A stretch of DNA of 34,108 nucleotides from a virus. Its lineage: Duplodnaviria; Heunggongvirae; Uroviricota; Caudoviricetes. Both the position numbers and the translations under genes were made by a program. The stretch lies in IMG/VR virus record IMGVR_UViG_2778261452_000005; one strand, 5' to 3'. The notes beneath the pieces are model-generated. The model saw nothing but the letters and a program-made list of their open reading frames with translations. It had not been told where the DNA came from and did no database searches. Of this stretch, positions 1 to 33,821 are shown in pieces (positions within the stretch are counted from its first letter, which is position 1; every line of letters starts with the position of its first letter).

Positions 1-1053
1 TTACGGGGTAATGCCAACCGCTGCCGCCACTTTGTCGCCACTTGGCAGCGTTGCCAGAGGATTGAAACGGAGCGCCGTTTCCAGATGATCCGGTGCCAGA
101 TGTGCGTAACGCATAGTCATTTTTATATCGTGGTGTCCGAGAATTTTTTGTAAGGCCAGAATGTTTCCACCCGACATCATGAAGTGCGCCGCAAACGTAT
201 GGCGCAGAACGTGTGTGAGTTGACCGCGAGGGAGCACGATAGACGTTTTTTCCATCACGGATAAAAATTGAAAATAGCAGTCTGTGAAGAAATTGAACCC
301 ATCAAGCGCCATGATCTCTTCGTAAAGCTCTTTACTGATAGGGATGCTTCTGTTTTTCTTCCCCTTCGTTCTTACAAAGGTAATTCGGTATTTGGTCACC
401 TGTGAACGAGTAAGATTTACGGCTTCTCGCCAGCGTGCGCCTGTGCTTAAGCATATCTTAACTACCAGTGCCAGAATTGGGTCCTGACGTTTGCAATCAG
501 CCAGTAATTCAACAATCTGCTCATGGGTAAGCCATGCCATCTCTTTTTCTGCGATGGTGAATTTTCGCATGTTCTCCAGTGGGTTCGGATACGACCATTC
601 GCCCAGGCGGGATAGTTCGCTAAAAACACTACTTAGATAGCTTTGCTCCAGGTTAATGGTGACCGGGCTTGCTCCTTTCTTCCATTTCTCGCTGAAGTAG
701 ATCTCACCTGTCAGGCGTTTATCTCGATAGTGGGCAAACATTTTAGAGGTGAGATCAGTTGCAAGGGGATTGCCCAGAGCGTCAACCATCAGCAGCAATT
801 TGTCATAGACATGCTGCCCAGCAGTCAGTGATTTACCATGTAGTTTGAACCATAGCTCAACCACGTCTTTCAGTGTTCGACGATCCACTGATTCACCTAG
901 CCAGGGCTTTGCTTCGGTTTCTTCCATCGTGTGACGCTCAAAAGCCAGTGCTTCGCCTTTGGTGGCGAATTGTTTACGCACACGACGCCCACTACGTCCG
1001 GCGGGGTAACATTCGCAAAGCCATTTTCCTGTGGTGAGTTTTCGTACAGCCAT
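1..1053 (-). CDS. int: Tyrosine integrase (P2/186 family)
   Basis: ORF 1..1131; start chosen at ATG 1051-1053, preceded by GGAGGG at about 8 nt. Carries ARWREA, HVLRHTF and RYAHL motifs typical of tyrosine recombinases. Stop codon at 1-3. Confidence 0.9.
   Translation of the reverse strand: MAVRKLTTGKWLCECYPAGRSGRRVRKQFATKGEALAFERHTMEETEAKPWLGESVDRRTLKDVVELWFKLHGKSLTAGQHVYDKLLLMVDALGNPLATDLTSKMFAHYRDKRLTGEIYFSEKWKKGASPVTINLEQSYLSSVFSELSRLGEWSYPNPLENMRKFTIAEKEMAWLTHEQIVELLADCKRQDPILALVVKICLSTGARWREAVNLTRSQVTKYRITFVRTKGKKNRSIPISKELYEEIMALDGFNFFTDCYFQFLSVMEKTSIVLPRGQLTHVLRHTFAAHFMMSGGNILALQKILGHHDIKMTMRYAHLAPDHLETALRFNPLATLPSGDKVAAAVGITP
19..40. repeat. attL core candidate (CGCTGCCGCCACTTTGTCGCCA)
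   Basis: 21/22 identical to 31254-31275; lies inside the last codons of int. Confidence 0.65.
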
Positions 1054-1077
1054 AAAAAATGCCCTCCAATAGAGAGC

Positions 1078-1106
1078 ATTTTTACTGTATGTATAACCAG
1101 TGTCAA
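1078..1106 (-). promoter_or_regulatory. Candidate int-proximal promoter (TTGACA-N17-AAAAAT on minus strand) with LexA-like box in the spacer
   Basis: Plus-strand tgtcaa at 1101-1106 gives a perfect -35 on the minus strand. TACTGTATGTATAACCAGTG at 1083-1102 has the CTG-N10-CAG spacing of a LexA box. Confidence 0.3.
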
Positions 1107-1241
1107 TGTATGAAATCCTGCGACCATACATCTCACTGAAGCCATAATGAAGTAGGCTATTCTTTTTGCTATGTGATCATGTAACTTTTGCGGTTAACCT
1201 GTGGCTCATTTTTATTTTAGGCGCAGATATAAAAGCAAAAG

Positions 1242-1448: not shown

Positions 1449-2018
1449 CTATTTAACATACTTGACTGTTAAGCTTATAATTTTACCAATTATTTCAATG
1501 TCTTCTATCTTACATTCGAAGGCTCTGTTTCCACCCTCGACGAAGATTCTTCCACCGGGTAAACGAGTAATGTCACGGATCGTTATTTCGCCATCAATAC
1601 TTATTACCCATTTACCATCACGTATATCATCAAATTCCTTATCACAAATAAATTCAGAATTATTATCTGTGATTACAAAAAGATTCTTGAATGCCGACGG
1701 TAGAAATTCTCTATCGAAAATATAAAAACCGTCTTCACACAAGGCCCCATCAGATAATACATATTTAGCAACTTCCATAGTATTTGTATTACCTGAAGTT
1801 TGCTTTGAACCATGCCCGGTTGTGAGCCAATTAAGCGAGGTTCCTGTTTCAAGGGCGCACTGGATTACCCATTCTGCTGGGAATGAGTCACGCATGTAGC
1901 GTGTGGCGAGTGTACTTTTAGAGATTCCTAAATGATCGCACAACGCCTGTCGAGTCTTGAATCCATAAGCTTCTACCATGCGCTCTATGGCGCCTCGTCC
2001 GCCTTTCTCCAAATTCAT
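1449..2018 (-). CDS. cI: CI-type lysogeny repressor (186 CI-like)
   Basis: ORF 1449..2024; ATG at 2016-2018 with GGAG SD. Position divergent from apl/cII; EAYGF and CALETG..LNWL..G motifs resemble 186 CI as I recall it. Confidence 0.8.
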   Translation of the reverse strand: MNLEKGGRGAIERMVEAYGFKTRQALCDHLGISKSTLATRYMRDSFPAEWVIQCALETGTSLNWLTTGHGSKQTSGNTNTMEVAKYVLSDGALCEDGFYIFDREFLPSAFKNLFVITDNNSEFICDKEFDDIRDGKWVISIDGEITIRDITRLPGGRIFVEGGNRAFECKIEDIEIIGKIISLTVKYVK

Positions 2019-2143
2019 GGTCACTCCAAGTGAACTTTTATCTTGACGATTTCACTGTGCGATCGTATGTTTATGGTGTTCACAAAATACAAACGATCCG
2101 TATTCGTCCTGATTAATCATCATTAAACGAGGAATGTTGCATC
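2019..2143. promoter_or_regulatory. Lysis-lysogeny switch region (pR/pL-type) between cI and apl
   Basis: Candidate rightward promoter TTGACG (2043-2048) N17 TATGTT (2066-2071); short inverted repeat AGTGAA/TTCACT flanks the -35. pL not located. Confidence 0.45.
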
Positions 2144-3721: not shown

Positions 3722-3948
3722 TGGCTGATGCAATGGATCTCGTACAGCAGCGCGTTGAAGAAGAACGCCAGAGCCATATCCGTGCAGCCCGTGCCAAATC
3801 ACCGGGCGTGTCACGCGTACTTTGCATTGAATGTGAAGCGCCAATTCCGCCAGCACGACGCCGCGCCATTCCGGGAGTGCAGCTTTGCATTACCTGTCAG
3901 GAAATCGCAGAACTGAAAGGCAAACATTACAACGGAGGTGCTGTATGA
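3721..3948 (+). CDS. TraR/DksA-family C4 zinc-finger protein
   Basis: CIECEAPIP...CITCQE four-cysteine motif; TAATG overlap with the upstream gene. Confidence 0.75.
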   Translation: MADAMDLVQQRVEEERQSHIRAARAKSPGVSRVLCIECEAPIPPARRRAIPGVQLCITCQEIAELKGKHYNGGAV

Positions 3949-4802
3949 GCACCATCCTGAAATGGGCGGGAAATAAAACCGCCATTATGCCAGAACTGAA
4001 AAAATACCTTCCTGCTGGCCCGCGACTGGTTGAACCTTTCGCGGGTTCCTGTGCTGTGATGATGGAAACGGATTATCCCAGCTATCTGGTTGCGGATATT
4101 AATCCTGATTTAATCAACCTCTATAAAAAGGTTGCCGCTGATTGTGAATCGTTTATATCTCGCGCCAGAGTTTTATTTGAGATCGCAAACAGGGAGGTGG
4201 CTTATTACAACATAAGGCAGGAGTTTAACTGCTCAACTGAAATTACTGATTTCATGAAAGCGGTATATTTCCTGTATCTCAATCGTCACGGTTACCGTGG
4301 TTTATGTCGCTATAACAAGAGCGGGCATTTCAACATTCCCTACGGTAATTATAAAAATCCGTATTTCCCTGAAAAAGAACTTCGCACATTTGCAGAAAAA
4401 GCCCAGCGAGCAACGTTTATCTGCGCCAGCTTTGATGAAACGCTGACGATGTTGAAGGCGGGAGATGTGGTGTATTGCGATCCGCCATATGACGGTACGT
4501 TTTCCGGTTATCACACTGATGGTTTCACTGAAGATGACCAGTATCACCTGGCATCCGTTCTTGAACATCGGTCATCAGAAGGACATCCGGTCATTGTTTC
4601 TAACAGTGACACATCCCTGATCCGTTCGCTGTATCGCAATTTTACTCACCACTATATCAAGGTAAAACGCAGCATCGGTGTGGCAGCTGGCGAGGGTAAA
4701 TCAGCAACAGAAATCATTGCTGTTTCCGGGCCGCGCTGCTGGATGGGATTTGATTATTCGCGTGGCGTGGATAGTTCTGCCGTGTACGGAGTACGTGCAT
4801 GA
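3945..4802 (+). CDS. dam: Orphan DNA N6-adenine methyltransferase (Dam-like)
   Basis: ATG 3945; EPFAGS (motif I) and CDPPY (motif IV); ATGA overlaps on both sides, with the zinc-finger gene and with A. Confidence 0.85.
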
Positions 4803-7213
4803 GTCATGCCGATATGAACAACTGCTGCGGCTTTAACGAGGCTGCCGCAGCATTCTCATGGAACAGCACGAAAAAGGCCATTAACCCTTATCTGGACCCG
4901 GCGGAAGTTGCGCCGGTTTCTACGCTTTCAAACCTGATCACTCTGTACGCTGCCGATAACGAGCAGGAACAGTTGCGCCGCGAGGCACTGAGTGATCAGG
5001 TCTGGGAGCGTTATTTCTTTAATGAATCACGTGATCCTGTCCAGCGCGAAATGGAGCAGGATAAGCTCATTAGCCGGGCAAAGCTGGCGCATGAGCAGCA
5101 GCGTTTTAATTCAGACATGGTCATTCTGGCGGACGTCAACGCCCAGCCTTCCCATATCAGCAAGCCGCTGATGCAACGTATTGAATACTTCAGCAGCCTG
5201 GGCAGGCCAAAGGCTTATTCCCGCTATTTACGTGAGACGATTAAGCCATGTCTGGAACGACTGGAGCATGTACGCGACAGTCAGCTATCTGCATCTTTTC
5301 GCTTTATGGCAAGCCATGAAGGGCTGGACGGCCTGCTGATCCTGCCTGAAATGAGTCAGGATCAGGTGAAACGCCTGTCCACCCTGGTAGCTGCGCATAT
5401 GAGTATGTGCCTTGATGCAGCTTGTGGTGATTTGTATGCCACCGATGACGTTAAGCCAGAAGAAATCCGCAAGACATGGGAAAAGGTGGCAGCGGAAACC
5501 CTGCGTCTGGATGTCATCCCACCTGCGTTTGAGCAACTCCGTCGGAAAAGAAACCGCCGTAAACCCGTGCCCTATGAACTCATTCCGGGTTCGCTGGCGC
5601 GTATGTTGTGCGCCGACTGGTGGTATCGGAAATTATGGAAGATGCGTTGCGAATGGCGGGAAGAGCAGTTGCGCGCTGTTTGCCTGGTCAGCAAAAAAGC
5701 ATCTCCTTATGTCAGCTATGAAGCCGTGATGCATAGACGTGAGCAGCGCCGTAAGTCGCTGGAGTTTTTCCGTTCTCATGAACTGGTGAACGAAGACGGC
5801 GACACGCTGGACATGGAGGATGTGGTAAACGCCAGCAGCAGCAACCCTGCGCATCGCCGCAATGAGATGATGGCCTGTGTTAAAGGTCTGGAGCTTATCG
5901 CGGAAATGCGCGGTGACTGCGCCGTTTTCTACACTATCACCTGTCCGTCGCGTTTCCATTCCACGCTAAATAACGGCAGACCAAACCCGACCTGGACAAA
6001 CGCGACGGTAAGACAAAGCAGCGATTATCTGGTCGGCATGTTTGCTGCATTTCGTAAGGCGATGCACAAAGCCGGGTTGCGCTGGTATGGCGTGCGGGTG
6101 GCTGAGCCGCATCATGATGGCACAGTTCACTGGCACCTGTTGTGTTTCATGCGCAAAAAAGACCGCCGTGCCATCACTGCATTACTGCGTAAGTTTGCCA
6201 TCCGTGAAGACCGCGAGGAGCTGGGCAATAACACTGGGCCGCGCTTTAAGTCTGAGTTGATTAACCCGCGCAAAGGAACGCCGACAAGCTACATCGCGAA
6301 ATATATCAGTAAGAACATTGACGGTCGTGGTCTGGCTGGCGAGATCAGCAAGGAAACGGGTAAATCTCTGCGTGATAACGCTGAATACGTGAATGCCTGG
6401 GCGTCTCTGCATCGTGTTCAGCAATTCCGCTTCTTTGGTATTCCGGGGCGTCAGGCTTACCGTGAACTTCGCTTGCTGGCTGGTCAGGCGGCAAGGCAAC
6501 AGGGTGACAAAAAAGCAGGTGCGCCGGTACTGGATAACCCGCGTCTTGATGCCATTCTGGCTGCTGCTGATGCTGGTTGTTTTGCCACCTACATCATGAA
6601 GCAGGGCGGCGTACTGGTTCCCCGTAAATATCACCTCATCAGAACCGCTTATGAAATCAACGAAGAGCCGACCGCCTATGGCGATCACGGCATTCGTATT
6701 TATGGCATCTGGTCACCCATTGCAGAGGGCAAGATCTGCACTCATGCAGTGAAGTGGAAAATGGTTCGTAAAGCCGTTGACGTTCAGGAGGCGGCAGCCG
6801 ACCAGGGCGCTTGCGCCCCTTGGACTCGTGGCAATAACTGTCCCCTTGCTGAAAATTTGAACCAACAGGAGAAAGATAAATCAGCTGATGGGGACACCAG
6901 AACGGATATTACCCGCATGGATGACAAGGAGTTGCACGATTTTCTGCACAGTATGAACAAAAAAGAGCGCCGGGAACTGGCTGCAAGGTTACGCCTGGTG
7001 AAACCGAAACGGCGTAGAAACTACAAACAGCGAATTACAGACCATCAACGACAGCAGCTCGTCTATGAACTGAAGTCCAGAGGATTTGATGGCAGCGAGA
7101 AAGAGGTAGATTTACTCCTTCGCGGTGGCAGTATTCCGTCAGGAGCAGGCCTGCGTATCTTCTATCGGAACCAGCGTCTGAAGGAAGATGATAAGTGGCG
7201 GAACCTGTATTAA
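4799..7213 (+). CDS. A: Replication initiation endonuclease gpA (rolling-circle, HUH family)
   Basis: 804 aa; HUH-type motif VHWHLL and paired tyrosines YIAKYISK; position after the early operon as in P2/186. Confidence 0.9.
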
Positions 7214-7365: not shown

Positions 7366-7554
7366 ATGCAGGACTATTTTTTGGAGTCTTTGAAGCTCCA
7401 GCGCATTGATTTTTTTCTTAAGCTTGTAGCGGCTAGTGAGTGTAGTGATGAAGAGAAGGGGCTGGCCCTGCAGTGGGTTTCTGAACTGACAGATGAACTC
7501 ATGGCAAAAATCAGAACCCACGAATACAACCGCTCAATGGATGTCATCAGCTGA
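7366..7554 (+). CDS. Small SOS-operon protein (62 aa), possible Tum-like antirepressor N-terminal part
   Basis: AGGAGG SD; immediately downstream of the LexA box; same position as 186 tum. Confidence 0.55.
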   Translation: MQDYFLESLKLQRIDFFLKLVAASECSDEEKGLALQWVSELTDELMAKIRTHEYNRSMDVIS

Positions 7555-7564
7555 GGTGACTTTT

Positions 7565-7798
7565 ATGCGCATTGAAATAATGATCGATAAAGAGCAGAAG
7601 ATTAGCCAGTCTACACTGGACGCCCTTGAATCCGAGCTTTACCGCAATCTGCGCCCCCTGTATCCCAAAACGGTAATTCGTATCCGCAAAGGTAGCTCTA
7701 ACGGTGTGGAACTGACCGGACTGCAACTGGACGAAGAAAGAAAACAAGTGATGAAAATTATGCAGAAGGTGTGGGAAGACGACAGCTGGCTGCATTAA
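7565..7798 (+). CDS. DinI-family protein
   Basis: 78 aa, MRIEIMIDK...WEDDSWL resembles E. coli DinI; GAGGTG SD overlaps the stop of the upstream ORF. Confidence 0.75.
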   Translation: MRIEIMIDKEQKISQSTLDALESELYRNLRPLYPKTVIRIRKGSSNGVELTGLQLDEERKQVMKIMQKVWEDDSWLH

Positions 7799-7957
7799 GA
7801 AACGTTGCTGGCGTCTGAAATTGCTTCTGGCGTCAGCAAGGTTGAACAACGAGTACAGTGAGGCGTTAGGTGTGGCGTTTATTTGATGAGTGAACGCCCG
7901 TTCTGCGACAGGTTTGGAGATTAAGGTTGAAACTACGGGCAAAATACCATCTTTTTC

Positions 7958-8383
7958 CTACTTAATTGAGTCCAGTAACAAGTTACAGTTACTCTCATTG
8001 TAGAGAGAACGAGCAATTAGTGTTACCTGCTTTCCATTCATTCCCGGCTTATCCCATAACACAGCTTCTTGCGACGCCACAAATTCAGCATAATCAATTA
8101 TGCGTTGTTCGTGATCTGGTTCCTCATAGCCAAAGTATGAGAGCGCATCGTTGTAAGCGTGGTAAGCTGCTTTCTGTAATATCTTGATATCGGCTGTAGG
8201 TACTTGCTCCGTGTAGCTAGGATCTAATTGTGTGCTACTGCCATAGAATGCACATGAAAGGTAAGATATTGATTTCTGTTGAGCTTTAGTTCCTTTCTCA
8301 TAGTTTTTAGCTGTTACCGCCTGAACTGGGACGCTAACAAAGCTTGCAACCAGAATTAAAATTAATACGTAAAAGCTTTTCAT
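7958..8383 (-). CDS. Hypothetical secreted (signal-peptide) protein, 141 aa; cargo gene
   Basis: GAGGT SD; N-terminal MKSFYVLILILVASFVSVPVQA looks like a cleavable signal peptide; AT-rich; sits at the P2 tin/old-equivalent position. Confidence 0.6.
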   Translation of the reverse strand: MKSFYVLILILVASFVSVPVQAVTAKNYEKGTKAQQKSISYLSCAFYGSSTQLDPSYTEQVPTADIKILQKAAYHAYNDALSYFGYEEPDHEQRIIDYAEFVASQEAVLWDKPGMNGKQVTLIARSLYNESNCNLLLDSIK

Positions 8384-8569
8384 TTTGACCTCAGCCGAAA
8401 CGTTAGAGAGACTATCGAAGTTTGTAAAACCCGTGGCGATTCAGTTTGAGATCCTCCCCCTTACATGATTTTTAATCAAATATATGCTTTTGTAAGCATA
8501 CCTGTTAACCGAATTATTCATTTTTAGAGATCTTCCGACATACTGATTATGCCCGCTGAGGAGTTCACC

Positions 8570-8686
8570 TTGCGTAAAGTCCGATTCGCTTTACTCGTCT
8601 GTGCATGTCTATGCTGCATGAGATTGCATGATCGTTTGAGGATCGTTTTTGCTAAGGCCCGCCAGAACTGGCGGGCTTTTGCGTAG
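8570..8686 (+). CDS. Candidate small ORF (38 aa, TTG start), basic N-terminus and Cys-rich hydrophobic core
   Basis: GAGGAG SD 6 nt upstream of TTG 8570; translation MRKVRFALLVCACLCCMRLHDRLRIVFAKARQNWRAFA; terminator-like hairpin overlaps its 3' end. Too short for the ORF track. Confidence 0.25.
   Translation: MRKVRFALLVCACLCCMRLHDRLRIVFAKARQNWRAFA
8657..8680 (+). terminator. Intrinsic-terminator-like hairpin (GCCCGCCAG..CTGGCGGGC + TTTT)
   Basis: GC-rich inverted repeat 8657-8676 followed by TTTT at 8677-8680. Confidence 0.45.
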
Positions 8687-8725
8687 ATTATGCACCTGCA
8701 TGAAAACCACTACATAAAGCGGGCA

Positions 8726-8744
8726 GGCGTGGCGGGGATACGAG
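8726..8744. other. Candidate cos (cohesive-end) site
   Basis: GGCGTGGCGGGGATACGAG resembles the 19-nt P2/186 cohesive ends as I recall them (GGCG[A/T]GGCGGGGAAAGCA-); located in the gpA-to-Q intergenic region where cos maps in P2-like prophages. Confidence 0.45.
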
Positions 8745-8833
8745 CGCGCGCTGATGGGGGACGCAGTGCTTTTGGCATAGTTATGAGGTAGAATTTCAAA
8801 ATACTTTTTAGCGCTGTTGGAGGTATAGACAAA

Positions 8834-9379
8834 ATGGACGTTATAACTGGAGTTGCAGAGTTTTTTCGAAAAGTACCTGCAGCATTTCTTGTGGCTATTA
8901 CATGTGTTTTAGGTCTTATACTTTTTCTGCCAGACTCTTTGGCAGTAAAAGTGGCTGTTGATGGCTTTCGTAATGAGTATAGGATTTTTATTGGACCTGC
9001 ATTTTTACTGTCTGTATCTTATTTAGTTGCAAGAGTCTATCTCTCTTTCTATGACTTACTTGGTGAAAGGCAGGCTAAGAAGGTACGCACTTCCTACCTT
9101 GAGAAGCTAACAGCAGAAGAAAAAGGATATTTAAAGTCTTATATTACCGAAGGTGTTAATTCACTTATGTGTGGGCCTGAGGATGGGGTCATGGGGGGAC
9201 TTGTGGCTAAGGGGATTACTTATAGAGCCACCAGTGTTGGGGATATGATCTACGGTTTTGCTTTCAACTTACAGCCATGGGCGCGTGAACATTTAGAGAA
9301 AAATAGTCATTTATTAGATGGGGCTATTGGGCGTGCAATGACTCCAAGAGAAAAATTAAACTTTAGATTGGGACGCTAA
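8834..9379 (+). CDS. Hypothetical inner-membrane protein (181 aa, two N-terminal TM helices); possible superinfection-exclusion/abortive-infection candidate
   Basis: GGAGGT SD; two hydrophobic helices (about aa 14-35 and 51-71) and a soluble C-terminal domain; lies between the cos-like site and the portal gene, where P2 has no gene. Confidence 0.6.
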   Translation: MDVITGVAEFFRKVPAAFLVAITCVLGLILFLPDSLAVKVAVDGFRNEYRIFIGPAFLLSVSYLVARVYLSFYDLLGERQAKKVRTSYLEKLTAEEKGYLKSYITEGVNSLMCGPEDGVMGGLVAKGITYRATSVGDMIYGFAFNLQPWAREHLEKNSHLLDGAIGRAMTPREKLNFRLGR

Positions 9380-9408
9380 CCAGTCACACATTACCAATGT
9401 GTGACTGG
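9380..9408. terminator. Perfect 11-bp inverted repeat between convergent genes (likely terminator)
   Basis: CCAGTCACACA-ttaccaa-TGTGTGACTGG directly after stop 9377-9379, followed by a T-rich tract. Confidence 0.5.
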
Positions 9409-9423
9409 TGGTGGTTATTTCTT

Positions 9424-10458
9424 TTATTCAATGTCAAATTTATATGGTTCAAAAGAAATAACCTTTTCCCCCAACCACTCATTTAGTTCTTCGAGTCTTT
9501 TTTGTAGCGGTATTAACTCATTACGGACAAAGACGCGGCTGGCTTTTTCCACATCACCAAAGCCGCCGGTATTGTTAGGAATAATGCCCATCATCTGCGG
9601 CGGTACGCGGTGTGCTGCCATCATGTCATCGCGGCTCACGTTCTTAATGTTCAGAAATTCATCCTTTGCTGCAACCTCAGACAGTGGGATGATCTGGATG
9701 CCGTCTTTTTTACCGTTGGGCGAATACATAAACAGGTTGCGGAAGTTGCCCGGACCTTTGGCGCTTTTCATCGCGTTGCGGAGGTTGTTCACATCCTCCT
9801 GGTTCTGCGCGGCGTCAGTCATATACATGATGAAGCCTGCATGGCTGCCGTTGATGTAATACTTACGGCGGAACAGCGTGGCGGACTCGTTGAGCAGGGC
9901 TGACGGAATGGCAGAAAGATAACCGGGCAGGCCGTAGATCTCCTGATTAATATCCGGTTCCATCAGATGAAAAATGCTGCCTTTCGTGAACTGATACGGC
10001 TGGGTTGTCATACCGTATTGCACAAACCAGTAGGTATCCAGGTCTAATCCGCGTCGGGTGTATTTTGCCAGCGCAGGTTCAAGGGCGATCACTTCACCGA
10101 AGCGGTTCGTGCGTTTCTCCAGATAGGCATTGCCAAATACCAGATAGTCCTGCACAAAACGCGAAAAAGCCTGCTGGCTGAGCAGCGGGTGAGGGATGTA
10201 GGTACTGGTCAGAATGTTGCACTTTACTGCAATCGGGGAACTGTGATGCACTGCAGCGCGGAAGGTGCGCGCCAGTCCGTCAAAGCTGACGGGCGGCTCA
10301 TACCAACGGTCCATCTGTACGCATTCCACATAGTCCAGTAATTCTCGGCGGTCCAGAACAGGAACGGGATCGCCGAAGCTGAATGCTTCGGCTGTAGTTT
10401 GACTTTTAAGCTGGATCTGTTTCGTCGCCGCAGCGCGGTTCTTCTTACTCTTTCCCAT
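9424..10458 (-). CDS. Q: Portal protein (P2 gpQ-like)
   Basis: 344 aa from ATG 10456-10458 (track ORF starts at TTG 10461); length and position match P2 Q; overlaps the P stop. Confidence 0.85.
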   Translation of the reverse strand: MGKSKKNRAAATKQIQLKSQTTAEAFSFGDPVPVLDRRELLDYVECVQMDRWYEPPVSFDGLARTFRAAVHHSSPIAVKCNILTSTYIPHPLLSQQAFSRFVQDYLVFGNAYLEKRTNRFGEVIALEPALAKYTRRGLDLDTYWFVQYGMTTQPYQFTKGSIFHLMEPDINQEIYGLPGYLSAIPSALLNESATLFRRKYYINGSHAGFIMYMTDAAQNQEDVNNLRNAMKSAKGPGNFRNLFMYSPNGKKDGIQIIPLSEVAAKDEFLNIKNVSRDDMMAAHRVPPQMMGIIPNNTGGFGDVEKASRVFVRNELIPLQKRLEELNEWLGEKVISFEPYKFDIE

Positions 10459-12224
10459 CAAAAAATCTCCACAATATTGCTGGTATTGGCGGATTCGCCC
10501 TGCAGCGGTTCGTTAAACAGTGCGTGCATCGTTGCCCAGGCCAGATCGGCATGGCTGGCTTCTTCGCTGCGGCTGGCTTCATAGGTCGGGCGGTTGCCAC
10601 TGGCGGTGGTGGCGCGACGGATTGCCATGAATGACTGCGCAATGTCGGTGTGCCCGGCGTCAAACTCCAGACGGCGGTGGCTGATAATGTCGTAGGCCTT
10701 GAGTACCAGGGCGTTTTTAACGTTGGGGTTGTAGACAAACTCCCGGACGGCAGGAAAGAACGCTTTCACGTTCTCATAAACCCCGTGACCAACGCCGGTT
10801 GAGTCGATGCCGATATAGGTCACGTTGTACTGTTCGGTCAGTTTTTTGATGGCGTCAGCCTGGGCGCGAAAGTCCATCCCGCGCCACTGGTGACGCTCAA
10901 GAATGCGGAACTTGCCGCCCGGCACGGCTGGCGGTGCCACCACCACGCATCCGGCACTGTCGCCGTTCTGCGTACCTTTCGCCGGGTCATAACCGATCCA
11001 CACTTCGCGCCAGCCAAATGGGCGCAGTGCCAGTGCATGAAAGTCGGTCCAGACTTCCCAGCTGTCCACCATGCACGCCTGCAGCTCGCTGAGTGGGAAC
11101 ACAGACGCGAGATCGTCCACAAACTCGCACATCAGCAGGTTCTGGTATTCGTCCGGGCTGTACTCCATGCGTAACTGATCGAGGTCGAACAGGTTACATC
11201 CGCCGCGCACTGCATCTTCCACGGTGACAATCTGGCGGTATTGCCCATCTGCGCACAGCAGGCCGGGGGCCAGATTGCTGTGGGACAGGTCGATGTCCAC
11301 CTTATCTGCTTTGTTGCGCCCACGGTTGAATAGCGCACCGGACCAGAACGGATAAGCACTGTGTGTCAGGCTGGATGGCGTGGAAAAATAGGTTTGTCGC
11401 CATTTCTTGTGAATAGCCATACCGGAAGCCACTTTGCGCAGCTCCTGGAATTTCGGTATCCAGAAATATTCATCCAGATACAGGTTGCCGTGATAACTCT
11501 GGGCCGTGCGGGCATTGGTGCCGAGGAAGTAAAGCGTGGCCCCGTTAGGAAGCACCATCGGATCGCCTTTCAACTCCACCTCCACTTCTTTGGCGAAGTC
11601 GATGATGTACTGCTTAAAGACGTGGGCCTGTGCCTTGCTGGCGGAAAGGAAAATCTGGTTACGTCCGGTCAGCAGGGCGTCAATCAGGGCTTCACGGGCA
11701 AAGTAAAAGGTCGCGCCGATCTGGCGTGACTTCAGCAGGTTGCGGATGCGGTTGGTTTTTCCGGCTTCCCACCAGTGGCGCTGGTAGTTGAACATGGAGG
11801 AATGGAAGATTTCTTCCAGCTTCTCAATCTGCTCATCGGTGAAAACATTCTTTTCCGGCTGACGGCGTGGGCCTTTGTTGCGGTTGGCGACGTTAGGGTT
11901 TAAGTCGGATTCGTTGCCGCCATTGTTAAACTTGCCGATCCGCGCGTGGCGCTCAGACTGGCGCGCCAGCAGGTCAATCTCTTTGAAATCTTTCCCTTCT
12001 TTGTGCTCCTTCATAATGAGCTGGCAGTAGCGTGCGGCGGTGGTGAGCTGCATCTGATCCAGCGGCCCATAGTCACCCCACTTGTCGCGTTTTTTCCAGC
12101 TGTGAACGGTTGCAACTTTCTCGCCCAGCATTTCAGCAATGCGGGCTACGCGGTATCCCTGAAAGTACAGCAGCATGGCCTGCCGACGGGGATCGAGATC
12201 TGCGGGTGTCAGTGTGGTGTTCAT
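10458..12224 (-). CDS. P: Terminase large (ATPase) subunit (P2 gpP-like)
   Basis: 588 aa; divergent from O; size and position as P2 P. Confidence 0.85.
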   Translation of the reverse strand: MNTTLTPADLDPRRQAMLLYFQGYRVARIAEMLGEKVATVHSWKKRDKWGDYGPLDQMQLTTAARYCQLIMKEHKEGKDFKEIDLLARQSERHARIGKFNNGGNESDLNPNVANRNKGPRRQPEKNVFTDEQIEKLEEIFHSSMFNYQRHWWEAGKTNRIRNLLKSRQIGATFYFAREALIDALLTGRNQIFLSASKAQAHVFKQYIIDFAKEVEVELKGDPMVLPNGATLYFLGTNARTAQSYHGNLYLDEYFWIPKFQELRKVASGMAIHKKWRQTYFSTPSSLTHSAYPFWSGALFNRGRNKADKVDIDLSHSNLAPGLLCADGQYRQIVTVEDAVRGGCNLFDLDQLRMEYSPDEYQNLLMCEFVDDLASVFPLSELQACMVDSWEVWTDFHALALRPFGWREVWIGYDPAKGTQNGDSAGCVVVAPPAVPGGKFRILERHQWRGMDFRAQADAIKKLTEQYNVTYIGIDSTGVGHGVYENVKAFFPAVREFVYNPNVKNALVLKAYDIISHRRLEFDAGHTDIAQSFMAIRRATTASGNRPTYEASRSEEASHADLAWATMHALFNEPLQGESANTSNIVEIF

Positions 12225-22643: not shown

Positions 22644-23783
22644 TTATGCTGTCTTGAACTGTAAAAGCACTTTACTAATTCTTCCCGACAGTAATACAGC
22701 TGGTTTATCGAAAAGACGATAGAAACCCCAGGACACTGGTAAGCTTATGGCTACGCAAATTATTATTGATATGAGGCTTGCTGCTAATTCATCAATGCGT
22801 AAGGACAAGTAGTTAAATGATGGTATTGCTACCGCGTAAATTAAAACCATTTGTAATAAATATAATGAGAAAGATATCTTGCCTAAAAATATTGCTGGTT
22901 TTGTAGATAGTATATTGTTAACCCCATTGCTCCTCAATGCAAATAAAACAATAAAAATACCAGAGAATAAAAACAGGGTGTACTCAGTTAAGTAATTATT
23001 AATATCTGAGAAAATGCTTGAATAGGCATATGATTGTACTTTATATCCAGCAAAGTATAATCCAAGAATTAGGATTGCGACAGATGATTTTTTTGATAGT
23101 TTAATATTTGTCTTGTATATTACGGAGCCAGACATAAAACAAGCCAATCCATAGTATAGTGCGTCGCCATCATTGTAATAGCCTAGTGATAGGAATATAA
23201 GAAATACAATCGCTGGAAAAAGTGCGGAGTTTGTTTTCTTGGATATAAATAGTAAAGCCAGAATATATGATCCGATGAGTTCAATTTTCATGGTCCATAA
23301 TACCCAGTTATAGGTCTTAACACCATCCCCACCAAAAGCACCTATTAATCCTGTGAATATGGCACCATGTAAGCTGTAATCAAAGGTTCCTAGATTTGAG
23401 GCCCATTCGGAAATGCCAGTTCTATTTATATCTATGTGTGAGTATACAGCCCATCCAATCAAACAAGAGAAAAATACTGGCACCATTAATCTTATATATC
23501 TTTTTAAAAGGAATGCAAAGAAAAGAATTGAATCAAATCGCTTAGAGAAACTTGAAGATAAAACAAAACCACTTAATACAAAGAATACGTAGACTCCAGC
23601 AGAGCCAGAGTAAAAAAAAGAGAAAGGAGAGTTCATGATATAACTCTCAAAAGAATACCTCATGGACTCTGCTGCATGCATATATGGGTAGAAAGTATAT
23701 GCAAGATGTGAGAAAAACACAGCAAGACAGGCGATGCCTCTGAGACCGTCCGCATTACTATTGTGTTCTTGAGCAACACTCAT
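22644..23783 (-). CDS. Membrane acyltransferase (acyltransferase-3 / OafA-like family), probable lysogenic-conversion cargo
   Basis: About 10 predicted TM helices; N-terminal motif DGLRGIACLAVFFSHL typical of acyltransferase-3 enzymes; strongly AT-rich; inserted between G and FI (the P2 Z/fun position). Confidence 0.75.
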   Translation of the reverse strand: MSVAQEHNSNADGLRGIACLAVFFSHLAYTFYPYMHAAESMRYSFESYIMNSPFSFFYSGSAGVYVFFVLSGFVLSSSFSKRFDSILFFAFLLKRYIRLMVPVFFSCLIGWAVYSHIDINRTGISEWASNLGTFDYSLHGAIFTGLIGAFGGDGVKTYNWVLWTMKIELIGSYILALLFISKKTNSALFPAIVFLIFLSLGYYNDGDALYYGLACFMSGSVIYKTNIKLSKKSSVAILILGLYFAGYKVQSYAYSSIFSDINNYLTEYTLFLFSGIFIVLFALRSNGVNNILSTKPAIFLGKISFSLYLLQMVLIYAVAIPSFNYLSLRIDELAASLISIIICVAISLPVSWGFYRLFDKPAVLLSGRISKVLLQFKTA

Positions 23784-23854
23784 GAAAATTAACCTATGTT
23801 TAGAGTAATGTAGCCTAAAACGCCTAATCAAAAATAGGCGGATACCTTTGAGGC

Positions 23855-31275: not shown

Positions 31276-31339
31276 TCGTTAAAAAACAGTGCTTCTAACA
31301 TCATGATTTTAAACAGCATAAATTTCAGGCAACAAAAAA

Positions 31340-31376
31340 CCCATCAACCTTGAACCGAAATGGCGGGGTTGATGGG
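31340..31376 (-). terminator. Terminator-like hairpin downstream of ybjL (minus strand)
   Basis: CCCATCAACC...GGTTGATGGG inverted repeat with a long loop, followed on the minus strand by TTTTTTGTT. Confidence 0.4.
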
Positions 31377-31488
31377 CTCCACAAAATGGGGACATCAAAG
31401 AAAAGCAGTGGCACTAATTAAGACTGATGCCCTGCGGAAAAGTTCTGCGGTTGTGCAAAAAAATTTCATTTTCAGGGCAACTTCAGTT

Positions 31489-33174
31489 TTATCCTAATCC
31501 TGGCCATACCATGACGATGATTGTCCCTGCCAGCGTCAGCAGGACGTTGGCGATTGCGTAGGTGCCCGCATAGCCCAGCGCAGGGATGTTACTGCGAGCT
31601 GTATCACTGATGATCTCCATTGCCGGCGCGCAGGTGCGTGCGCCCATCATTGCGCCGAACAACAGTGCGCGGTTCATTCGCAATACATAAGCACCGAACA
31701 AGAAACAGATAACCACGGGCACAAGACTGACAATTAATCCGGCAATCAACATCTGACCGCCAATCGCGCCCAGGCCGTTATTAATACCGCTACCGGCGCT
31801 CAGACCAACGCCTGCCATAAACACCATCAAGCCGAACTCTTTCACCATGCTTAATGCACCTTGCGGAATGTAACCGAAGGTCGGGTGGTTAGCACGCATA
31901 AAGCCCAGCATAATTCCGGCGAATAACAACCCGGCAGCGTTCCCCATGCCGAAACTGAATGTGCTGAACTGGAAGGTGATCATCCCGATCATCAGCCCAA
32001 TAACAAAGAAGGCGCAAAATGCCAGCAGGTCAGTGACCTGGCTGTGAATCGAGATAAAGCCGATGCGATCGGCGATGGTTTTTACGCGACGGGCATCACC
32101 GCTGACTTGTAAAACGTCACCTTTGTTAAGCACGACGTTGTCATCTATCGGCATCTCAATCTGGCTACGAATGACGCGGTTAAGGAAGCAACCGTGATCG
32201 GTCAACTTCAGTTGTGCGAGACGTTTACCTACAGCGTTATGGTTTTTAACGACCACTTCTTCAGTGACGATACGCATGTCGAGAAGGTCACGATCGAAAA
32301 CTTCTTTACCGTTACGGAAGCTGGGATCGAGTCGGGCATGGGCGTCGGGATAGCCTACCAACGCTATTTCATCGCCCATTTGTAGCACGGCATCACCGTC
32401 TGGATTTGCCAGAATCCCGTTACGTCGAATACGTTCAATGTAGCAGCCGGTTTGTCGATAAATACCCAGTTCACGCAGATTTTTGCCGTCGGTCCAGGCC
32501 ACCAGCTCCGGGCCGACGCGATAGGCGCGGATCACCGGTAAATAAACCTTACGGTTGGCATCAGTGTCCAGGCCACGTTCGCGGGCGATTTGCTGGGCGC
32601 TGGTCTGTAAGTCCTGATGCTGCAATTTCGGCAAGTAACGCGCACCAACAATCAAACTCACCAGACCGATTAAATAGGTTAAGGCATACCCGAGGCTCAG
32701 ATTATCCAGTGCCAGTGAGAGCTGCCTGCTTTCCATGCCGGAATGACGCAGTGTATCGCCAGCACCGACCAGAACCGGTGTCGACGTCATAGAGCCTGCT
32801 AACATACCGGCCGTCAGGCCAATATCCCAGCCAAACAGCTTACCTAACCCTAAGGCGATCACCAGCGCACTGCCAACCATCACCAGTGCTAACATTAGGT
32901 AATTTTTCCCATCGCGAAAAAAAATGGAAAAAAAGTTCGGTCCGGCTTCGACCCCGACGCAGAAAATAAACAGCATAAAGCCAAGATTAAGCGCATCGGT
33001 GTTAATGCTGAAATGTTGTTGGCCTAATAACAGCGATACGACTAAAACGCCAATGGAATTACCCAGTTGGATCGAACCAAGTCGTAACTTTCCGAGACAT
33101 AGCCCAAGCGCGAGGACCACAAATAATAACAGAATGTAATTCCCATTTAACAATTCGGCGACGTTTATATTCAC
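31489..33174 (-). CDS. ybjL: Putative transport protein YbjL (host chromosome)
   Basis: 561 aa multi-TM protein with central soluble domains; N-terminus [20 protein letters not shown] matches E. coli YbjL as I recall it; GTG start. Confidence 0.85.
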
Positions 33175-33443: not shown

Positions 33444-33821
33444 GTGAAACATAAACAACGTTGGGCGGGGGCAATCTGCTGTTTTGTCCTCTTCATTGTG
33501 GTGTGCCTTTTTCTGGCGACGCACATGAAAGGCGCTTTTCGGGCTGCCGGGCATCCTGAAATCGGCTTGCTATTTTTCATTCTTCCTGGAGCAGTCGCCA
33601 GCTTCTTTTCACAGCGTAGAGAAGTCCTGAAACCTCTGTTTGGCGCAATGCTGGCGGCACCCTGTTCGATGCTCATTATGCGGCTGTTTTTTTCACCGAC
33701 GCGCTCATTCTGGCAAGAGCTGGCATGGTTACTAAGCGCGGTGTTCTGGTGTGCGCTGGGGGCACTGTGTTTCTTATTTATCAGTAGTTTGTTTAAACCA
33801 CAGCACAGAAAAAATCAGTAA
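33444..33821 (+). CDS. ybjM: Inner membrane protein YbjM (host chromosome)
   Basis: 125 aa, GTG start with AGGAGG SD; sits between ybjL and grxA as in E. coli K-12. Confidence 0.8.
   Translation: MKHKQRWAGAICCFVLFIVVCLFLATHMKGAFRAAGHPEIGLLFFILPGAVASFFSQRREVLKPLFGAMLAAPCSMLIMRLFFSPTRSFWQELAWLLSAVFWCALGALCFLFISSLFKPQHRKNQ

Follow-up and report, generated by a model that had tools for sequence, protein, structure and literature searches.

A SieB-family gene and an unrelated secreted-protein gene flank cos in a P2/Fels-2-type prophage of Escherichia coli

The superinfection exclusion protein SieB of temperate phages has been known since the 1970s-90s, and its mechanism has remained obscure. The founding members of the family, SieB of phage lambda (184 amino acids) and SieB of phage P22 (192 amino acids), combine an N-terminal pair of membrane-spanning segments with a soluble C-terminal domain and are encoded by non-essential prophage genes, which in these lambdoid phages lie in the PL region beside N/24. 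In this study, we describe a divergent member of the family (181 amino acids), encoded next to cos in a P2/Fels-2-type prophage of Escherichia coli. The prophage is contained in IMG/VR record IMGVR_UViG_2778261452_000005, a stretch of 34,108 nucleotides that was analysed as a whole and is called the window hereafter. On the other side of cos the prophage carries a second, unrelated cargo gene for a predicted secreted protein of 141 amino acids.

For P22 SieB, a halt of macromolecular synthesis halfway through the lytic cycle has been described (bioRxiv 10.1101/2023.08.15.553423), and P22 protects itself by Esc, a product whose translation starts at codon 25 of sieB, together with the antisense RNA sas. 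SieB proteins act in the middle of the infection cycle, in contrast to P22 SieA, which blocks DNA injection. Concerning the genomic position, phage P2 carries tin and old between gene A and cos, and the gap of 167 base pairs (bp) between cos and gene Q is free of genes. In P2-like prophages the locus between gpA and gpQ has been defined as an anti-phage hotspot, and among the hotspot systems that were cloned 'more than a third', i.e. under half, were active (Rousset et al. 2022, PMC9122126).

A SieB-family gene next to cos

The 181-residue protein matches the Pfam family PF14163 (SieB) over the full length of the profile (positions 2-146 of 147) with 88.4 bits and E = 4.5e-25, the gathering cut-off being 26 bits. 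For comparison, the scan gave 103.5 bits for lambda SieB and 101.4 bits for P22 SieB. By this measure the protein is a member of the SieB family and nearly as good a profile match as the founders. The identical protein in RefSeq (WP_021548667) is named 'superinfection exclusion B family protein' by PGAP. Moreover, it is listed as 'SieB' in several gpA-gpQ gene arrangements in Table S5 of Rousset et al. 2022 (PMC9122126). The gene is a divergent member of a known family in a known hotspot, and neither family nor hotspot is newly described. A preliminary description of this locus, drawn up from the sequence alone, had presented it as a candidate undescribed exclusion or defence module; for the 181-residue protein the word undescribed does not hold in view of its full-length profile match, its PGAP name and its place in the published table.

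Two hydrophobic segments, at residues ~10-43 and 51-70, were detected by the Kyte-Doolittle method, and the secondary structure of the AlphaFold2 (AF2) model agrees with them. They are followed by a conserved C-terminal domain of ~105 residues. Length, predicted membrane-spanning pair and C-terminal domain are as in the SieB proteins of lambda and P22, and so is the setting in a non-essential gene of a temperate prophage, whereas the prophage is a P2/Fels-2-type myovirus with the gene beside cos. The subfamily to which the protein belongs comprises at least 195 cluster representatives, all of them with PF14163. Its members are 50-60% identical across Enterobacterales, Vibrio, Halomonas, Pseudomonas and Methylophaga and share invariant motifs which include LTxEEKGYL, DGxM and GFxxNxxPWAR. 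A 67%-identical relative occupies the same slot between cos and portal gene in a P2-like prophage of Citrobacter; the neighbour of other relatives is an integrase gene in Vibrio and a gene with a Bro-N domain in Pseudomonas.

In a collection of 50,697 phage records the nearest protein is YopH of the Bacillus prophage SPbeta, followed by a protein of an Akkermansia phage. YopH, likewise annotated as SieB family, aligns with 92% of the query at 27.8% identity (E = 4e-14), but its host is Gram-positive. We know of no functional data for YopH.

Two cargo slots separated by the cos block

Comparison by blastn with five related loci revealed sharp boundaries on both sides of cos. On the left, backbone homology stops at 7796-7869. 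On the right, the homology of the relatives ends at 8751-8752 and restarts at 9427-9466. The two cargo genes are AT-rich, with a guanine plus cytosine (GC) content of 40.4% for the 141-residue protein gene and 40.3% for the sieB-like gene, as compared to 52.8% for gpA, 50.7% for the portal gene and 56.5% for the terminase gene. Among otherwise near-identical prophages with near-identical flanks the cargo turns over. The left slot of relatives holds a pair of genes for proteins of 71 and 280 amino acids, a gene for a protein of 243 amino acids (Fels-2), or nothing (matches with 36% coverage). In the right slot of relatives we found recognised defence genes, namely AbiU (Fels-2, 374 bits), DUF262/HEC-06/Orf5 (299 bits) and bSEFIR (343 bits), or a 324-residue protein together with a STAS-like protein. 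The Fels-2 protein STM2723.1 (NC_010463, 5158-6855) is annotated as 'hypothetical protein' and fits the PADLOC model AbiU with E = 2.7e-112.

Taking the anatomy of the locus and the family assignment jointly, we are fairly confident that the region, located between gpA/DinI and the portal gene, is the already known hypervariable cos-adjacent hotspot of P2/Fels-2-like prophages. It resembles the hotspot of Rousset et al. 2022 (PMC9122126) in its high turnover, and both the exact SieB and the exact 141-residue protein stand in their Table S5, but neither gene is among the systems tested there. As compared to the old/tin locus of P2, the position beside cos is the same and the gene of the 141-residue protein runs leftward, with a candidate promoter to the left of cos. 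Yet neither cargo gene is related to old or tin, and the present prophage carries cargo to the right of cos as well, where P2 has only its 167 bp.

Regarding the linkage of the two genes, a survey confined to 5426 complete E. coli genomes found the cos block in 1274 genomes, the gene of the 141-residue protein in 101, the sieB-like gene in 21, and both genes adjacent in a single genome. Under independent assortment among the 1274 genomes with the cos block, a co-occurrence of ~1.6 would be expected. The same SieB allele was seen with different left cargo, and the same allele of the 141-residue protein was seen with right cargos of the DUF262, HIRAN or STAS type. Since co-occurrence is at chance level and each gene has other partners, the two were acquired independently. 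Each has its own cassette, the two run in opposite directions, and 151 bp of conserved cos block lie between them; they are two unrelated single-gene inserts, not a two-gene module. The sole complete E. coli genome with both is that of E. coli MB06234 (NZ_CM129882, 6259-8205), in which they belong to a deleted prophage copy; a truncated terminase gene abuts a truncated tail-fibre (gp53-like) gene there, and the cargo flanking cos is retained.

Much of the preliminary description stands. The coordinates of both genes and of the cos site, the ribosome-binding sites and the AT-richness were all confirmed, as was its account of P2 with tin and old between A and cos and no gene between cos and Q. 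Hydropathy bears out the signal-peptide protein and the two-helix membrane protein. The comparison across prophages which it had proposed did reveal cargo at a P2-type gpA-portal hotspot, turning over between near-identical prophages. Its idea of a module, on the other hand, is contradicted by the separate cassettes around the cos block and by the single joint occurrence in the survey. The profile, PADLOC and structure searches it had suggested led to the SieB family for the 181-residue protein but to no match for the 141-residue protein. The exclusion role it had envisaged for the locus fits the former, a predicted inner-membrane protein in a phage-exclusion family; for the latter, taken by itself, it has a low probability.

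The orphan secreted protein and the cos block

The 141-residue protein (WP_000834899) has a single N-terminal hydrophobic segment (residues 1-26). Two cysteines, Cys44 and Cys133, are invariant across its family, and the AF2 model is all-helical with a predicted local distance difference test (pLDDT) score of 76 and a predicted template modelling (pTM) score of 0.68. Scans of the protein and 13 relatives with Pfam, PADLOC, PHROG and NCBIfam returned nothing informative, and a structure search with the model gave no fold match. The family is small: at 90% identity it comprises seven clusters among 5.8 billion proteins, and at 50% identity 13 representatives among 1.8 billion. On the basis of its sequence and model, the protein is assigned to an orphan family as a small, helical, predicted disulfide-bonded protein of the periplasm.

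Homologues are always located on mobile DNA, i.e. prophages, plasmids and islands, with no constant neighbour; a search by BLASTP for a conserved partner gene beside them found none. The Hafnia alvei homologue (77% identity; SITA01000031, 5333-7640) uses another cargo slot of P2, the one from tail gene S to baseplate gene V; on its two sides are genes for a membrane protein of 215 residues and for a candidate defence protein, PDC-S11 (365 bits). Other homologues adjoin a phage integrase, lie on a contig with ParA/ParG or on an island near ecotin. In GCA_049942945 (CP188041, 4540-5917) the gene of a distant homologue stands between two others and overlaps with them. Each of the three products has a signal peptide, an N-proximal cysteine and a C-terminal 'NC' motif, which looks like a row of paralogues. 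That these tandem neighbours are paralogues was considered and is not supported by hhalign.

The open reading frames (ORFs) of both cargo proteins are preceded by ribosome-binding sites (GAGG and GGAGG). Upstream of the gene of the 141-residue protein lies a sigma-70-like promoter candidate, which is a consensus match only, such sites being no more frequent in this region than in shuffled sequence.

The conserved cos block is common to Fels-2-like prophages of E. coli, Salmonella, Klebsiella and Citrobacter. Its cohesive-end sequence was aligned with the annotated cosL/cosR of P2 (NC_001895); it is identical to the P2 cohesive end GGCGAGGCGGGGAAAGCAC at 14 of 19 positions, with alignable flanks, and identical throughout in the Fels-2, Klebsiella and Citrobacter relatives. 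To the left of cos four TGCATG palindromes are clustered. This hexamer is depleted in the window as a whole (18 found as compared to 42 expected from shuffles), and 4 of the 18 sites fall within 100 bp beside cos. The Fels-2, Klebsiella and Citrobacter relatives keep the cluster, and P2 retains part of it. Probably these are terminase-recognition repeats. A GC-rich hairpin among them is terminator-like and may end the rightward early region. An Rfam scan for known RNAs in the cos region found none; the sole match in the window, RybB, lies elsewhere.

The preliminary description had also counted a small Cys-rich ORF, initiated by TTG and ending in a hairpin, as part of the locus. The open frame and the hairpin at its end are real, but the frame was rejected as a real peptide: it starts in the variable left cassette, runs across position 8601 into the conserved block and for this reason is not a credible gene. 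Its cysteines are the conserved TGCATG repeats read as Cys-Met, its tail is the terminator hairpin, and its sole family match is a partial one to a PHROG of 72 amino acids. The region is non-coding cos-flanking DNA.

All features of the locus and of the adjacent backbone are compiled in Table 1. For the DinI-family gene the longest ORF (7493-7798, plus strand, 101 amino acids) overlaps the upstream gene of 62 codons; a product of 77 amino acids is favoured by PGAP and by the Pfam match (residues 38-100). Near or at the right end of the prophage the gene of the small RNA RybB was identified (31331-31409, minus strand, 105 bits in Rfam), with the chromosomal genes ybjL (31489-33174, minus strand) and ybjM (33444-33821, plus strand) beyond it. 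The integration site of the prophage seems to be rybB or the sequence next to it. Between the tail-fibre assembly and tail sheath genes lies a gene (22644-23831, minus strand) for a membrane acyltransferase of 395 amino acids (Acyl_transf_3, PF01757, 91 bits), for which PADLOC gave no match. Its position is presumably the Z/fun cargo slot of P2. It is probably an O-antigen-modifying gene of lysogenic conversion and, as such, a third cargo gene of the prophage.

Table 1. Features of the cos-adjacent locus and the neighbouring prophage backbone (positions in the window)
Feature	Position	Strand	Remarks
Integrase	1-1131	-	
CI-type repressor	1449-2024	-	
Dam methylase	3885-4802		
gpA replication gene	4799-7213		
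Backbone gene of 62 codons, phrog_698	7366..7554	+	downstream of gpA; present in every relative examined
DinI-family gene	7565..7798	+	PF06183, 80 bits; PGAP 'DinI-like family protein'; last backbone gene before left slot
Left cargo cassette	7870..8600	-	40.9% GC; boundaries by blastn
Gene of the 141-residue protein, WP_000834899	7958..8383	-	signal peptide ending VQA/V; predicted periplasmic
Sigma-70-like promoter candidate	8479..8508	-	TTAACA-18-TATATT, 10/12; upstream of the gene of the 141-residue protein, in cassette
Small 'Cys-rich' open frame	8549..8686	+	TTG at 8570; rejected as a gene
Conserved cos block	8601..8751		54% GC; 151 bp; separates the two cargo slots
Four TGCATG palindromes	8602..8702		starts 8602, 8615, 8625, 8697; just left of cos
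GC-rich hairpin followed by TTTT	8654..8684	+	-24.6 kcal/mol, z = -4.2; conserved in relatives
cos, 19-nucleotide cohesive-end sequence GGCGTGGCGGGGATACGAG	8726..8744		aligned with cosL/cosR of P2
Right cargo cassette	8752..9426	+	40.5% GC; between cos and portal gene
sieB-family gene, WP_021548667	8834..9379	+	predicted inner-membrane protein of 181 amino acids; PF14163
Terminator of the sieB-like gene	9379..9409	+	hairpin with 14-bp stem, then T-rich tract; -23.1 kcal/mol, z = -5.3; inside cassette
Portal gene, gpQ homologue	9424..10461	-	right-hand conserved border of the hotspot
Terminase	10458-12224	-	

Possible functions of the cargo genes and their meaning

By analogy with its family, the SieB-like protein would be made by the prophage in the lysogen. 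It would be anchored in the inner membrane by its N-terminal two-helix hairpin, with the C-terminal domain in the cytoplasm, and would bring the lytic cycle of certain superinfecting phages of other types (heterologous phages) to an abortive end after entry of their DNA. We consider such an abortive anti-phage function of the protein rather likely. Family membership makes exclusion of the abortive-infection type, rather than a block of DNA entry, the most likely mode of action. The preliminary description had grouped lambda SieB with proteins that block incoming DNA and had expected such a block here, but the phenotype documented for SieB is a stop in the middle of the cycle (bioRxiv 10.1101/2023.08.15.553423). 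With the entry blockers T4 Imm/Sp and P22 SieA the two proteins share the predicted envelope localisation, but their families were not returned for either protein by Pfam, PHROG, NCBIfam or PADLOC.

Several observations weigh against an abortive function carried over from lambda and P22. Pairwise similarity to the characterised SieB proteins is weak or absent, i.e. 22% identity to lambda SieB over 143 residues (E = 0.006 in a single comparison), no alignment with P22 SieB by BLASTP, and a probability of 2.7% by hhalign against the single lambda SieB sequence; the link to them runs through the Pfam profile only. The AF2 model is of low confidence (pLDDT 68, pTM 0.44), and a fold search with it returned no informative match. 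PADLOC has no model for the protein, 'SieB' is absent from Table S2 of tested systems in Rousset et al. 2022 (PMC9122126), and a literature search found no paper testing this SieB subfamily. A consensus sigma-70 promoter was not found upstream of 8834. Inside the gene, no ATG that could serve as an Esc-like internal start occurs before codon 112 (a GTG at codon 20 lacks a Shine-Dalgarno sequence), and no sas-like antisense promoter was detected; Esc and sas are a trait of the P22 system, not of the Pfam family. A rival reading is that the protein shares with SieB nothing but the membrane-anchored architecture and acts otherwise, e.g. by blocking injection or in a function internal to the phage. 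The high divergence from lambda and P22 SieB and the missing Esc/sas arrangement would fit this reading, and so would the unusually high conservation of the subfamily (members from Enterobacterales, Halomonas, Vibrio and Pseudomonas are 50-60% identical), which suggests a cellular rather than a phage-specific partner. However, the full-profile Pfam match scores almost as high as those of the founding members. Moreover, the gene occupies a defence slot as dispensable cargo and is missing from most relatives, and for this reason it is not a core function of the phage. We therefore judge a merely architectural resemblance to be unlikely and hold to SieB-type exclusion as the preferred reading for the 181-residue protein. 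Even less can be said for the view that both proteins form one new envelope module which blocks the DNA injection of superinfecting phages. Both are AT-rich, envelope-localised cargo flanking cos, and they are neighbours in the window and in E. coli MB06234. But their opposite orientation, the conserved block that parts their two cassettes, and one joint occurrence despite 101 and 21 carriers, each gene having other partners, do not fit a module, and the phenotype known for the SieB family is a post-entry one. This view is largely refuted by the distribution of the genes and must be called very improbable.

For the 141-residue protein no single role stands out. It may act alone as a periplasmic superinfection-exclusion factor, e.g. 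by inhibiting a phage tail lysozyme or a DNA conduit, functionally like T4 Sp. The gene is cargo of prophages and other mobile elements in slots which hold defence genes elsewhere, and its Hafnia homologue adjoins the PDC-S11 candidate defence gene. A promoter-like site lies upstream of the gene within its cassette, and secretion and the invariant cysteine pair are compatible with action in the periplasm. On the other side, the protein resembles neither the defence models nor known exclusion proteins and has no fold match, and its location in the hotspot is circumstantial, given that under half of the systems which Rousset et al. cloned from the hotspot were active. Periplasmic phage exclusion is thus a tentative proposal. 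Slightly more doubtful still is the alternative of an orphan immunity protein or inhibitor against an antibacterial toxin acting in the periplasm, such as a type VI secretion system (T6SS) or bacteriocin effector or a lysozyme, i.e. a host-fitness 'moron'. The remaining weight falls on other roles in host fitness. It is conceivable, though doubtful, that the WP_000834899 family represents a new class of periplasm-acting protectors on mobile elements, be it as phage-exclusion factor or as immunity protein.

As it stands, the finding matters little; the hotspot, its turnover and WP_021548667 within it have already been published or annotated. For mining the hotspot it is useful to know that in Fels-2-like prophages it consists of two independent slots split by the cos block. 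The orphan secreted family, which hops among prophage slots and plasmids, is a cheap candidate for screening by phage challenge or for toxin immunity. A conserved and widespread SieB subfamily could serve as a tractable model and help to explain how SieB senses and stops phages.

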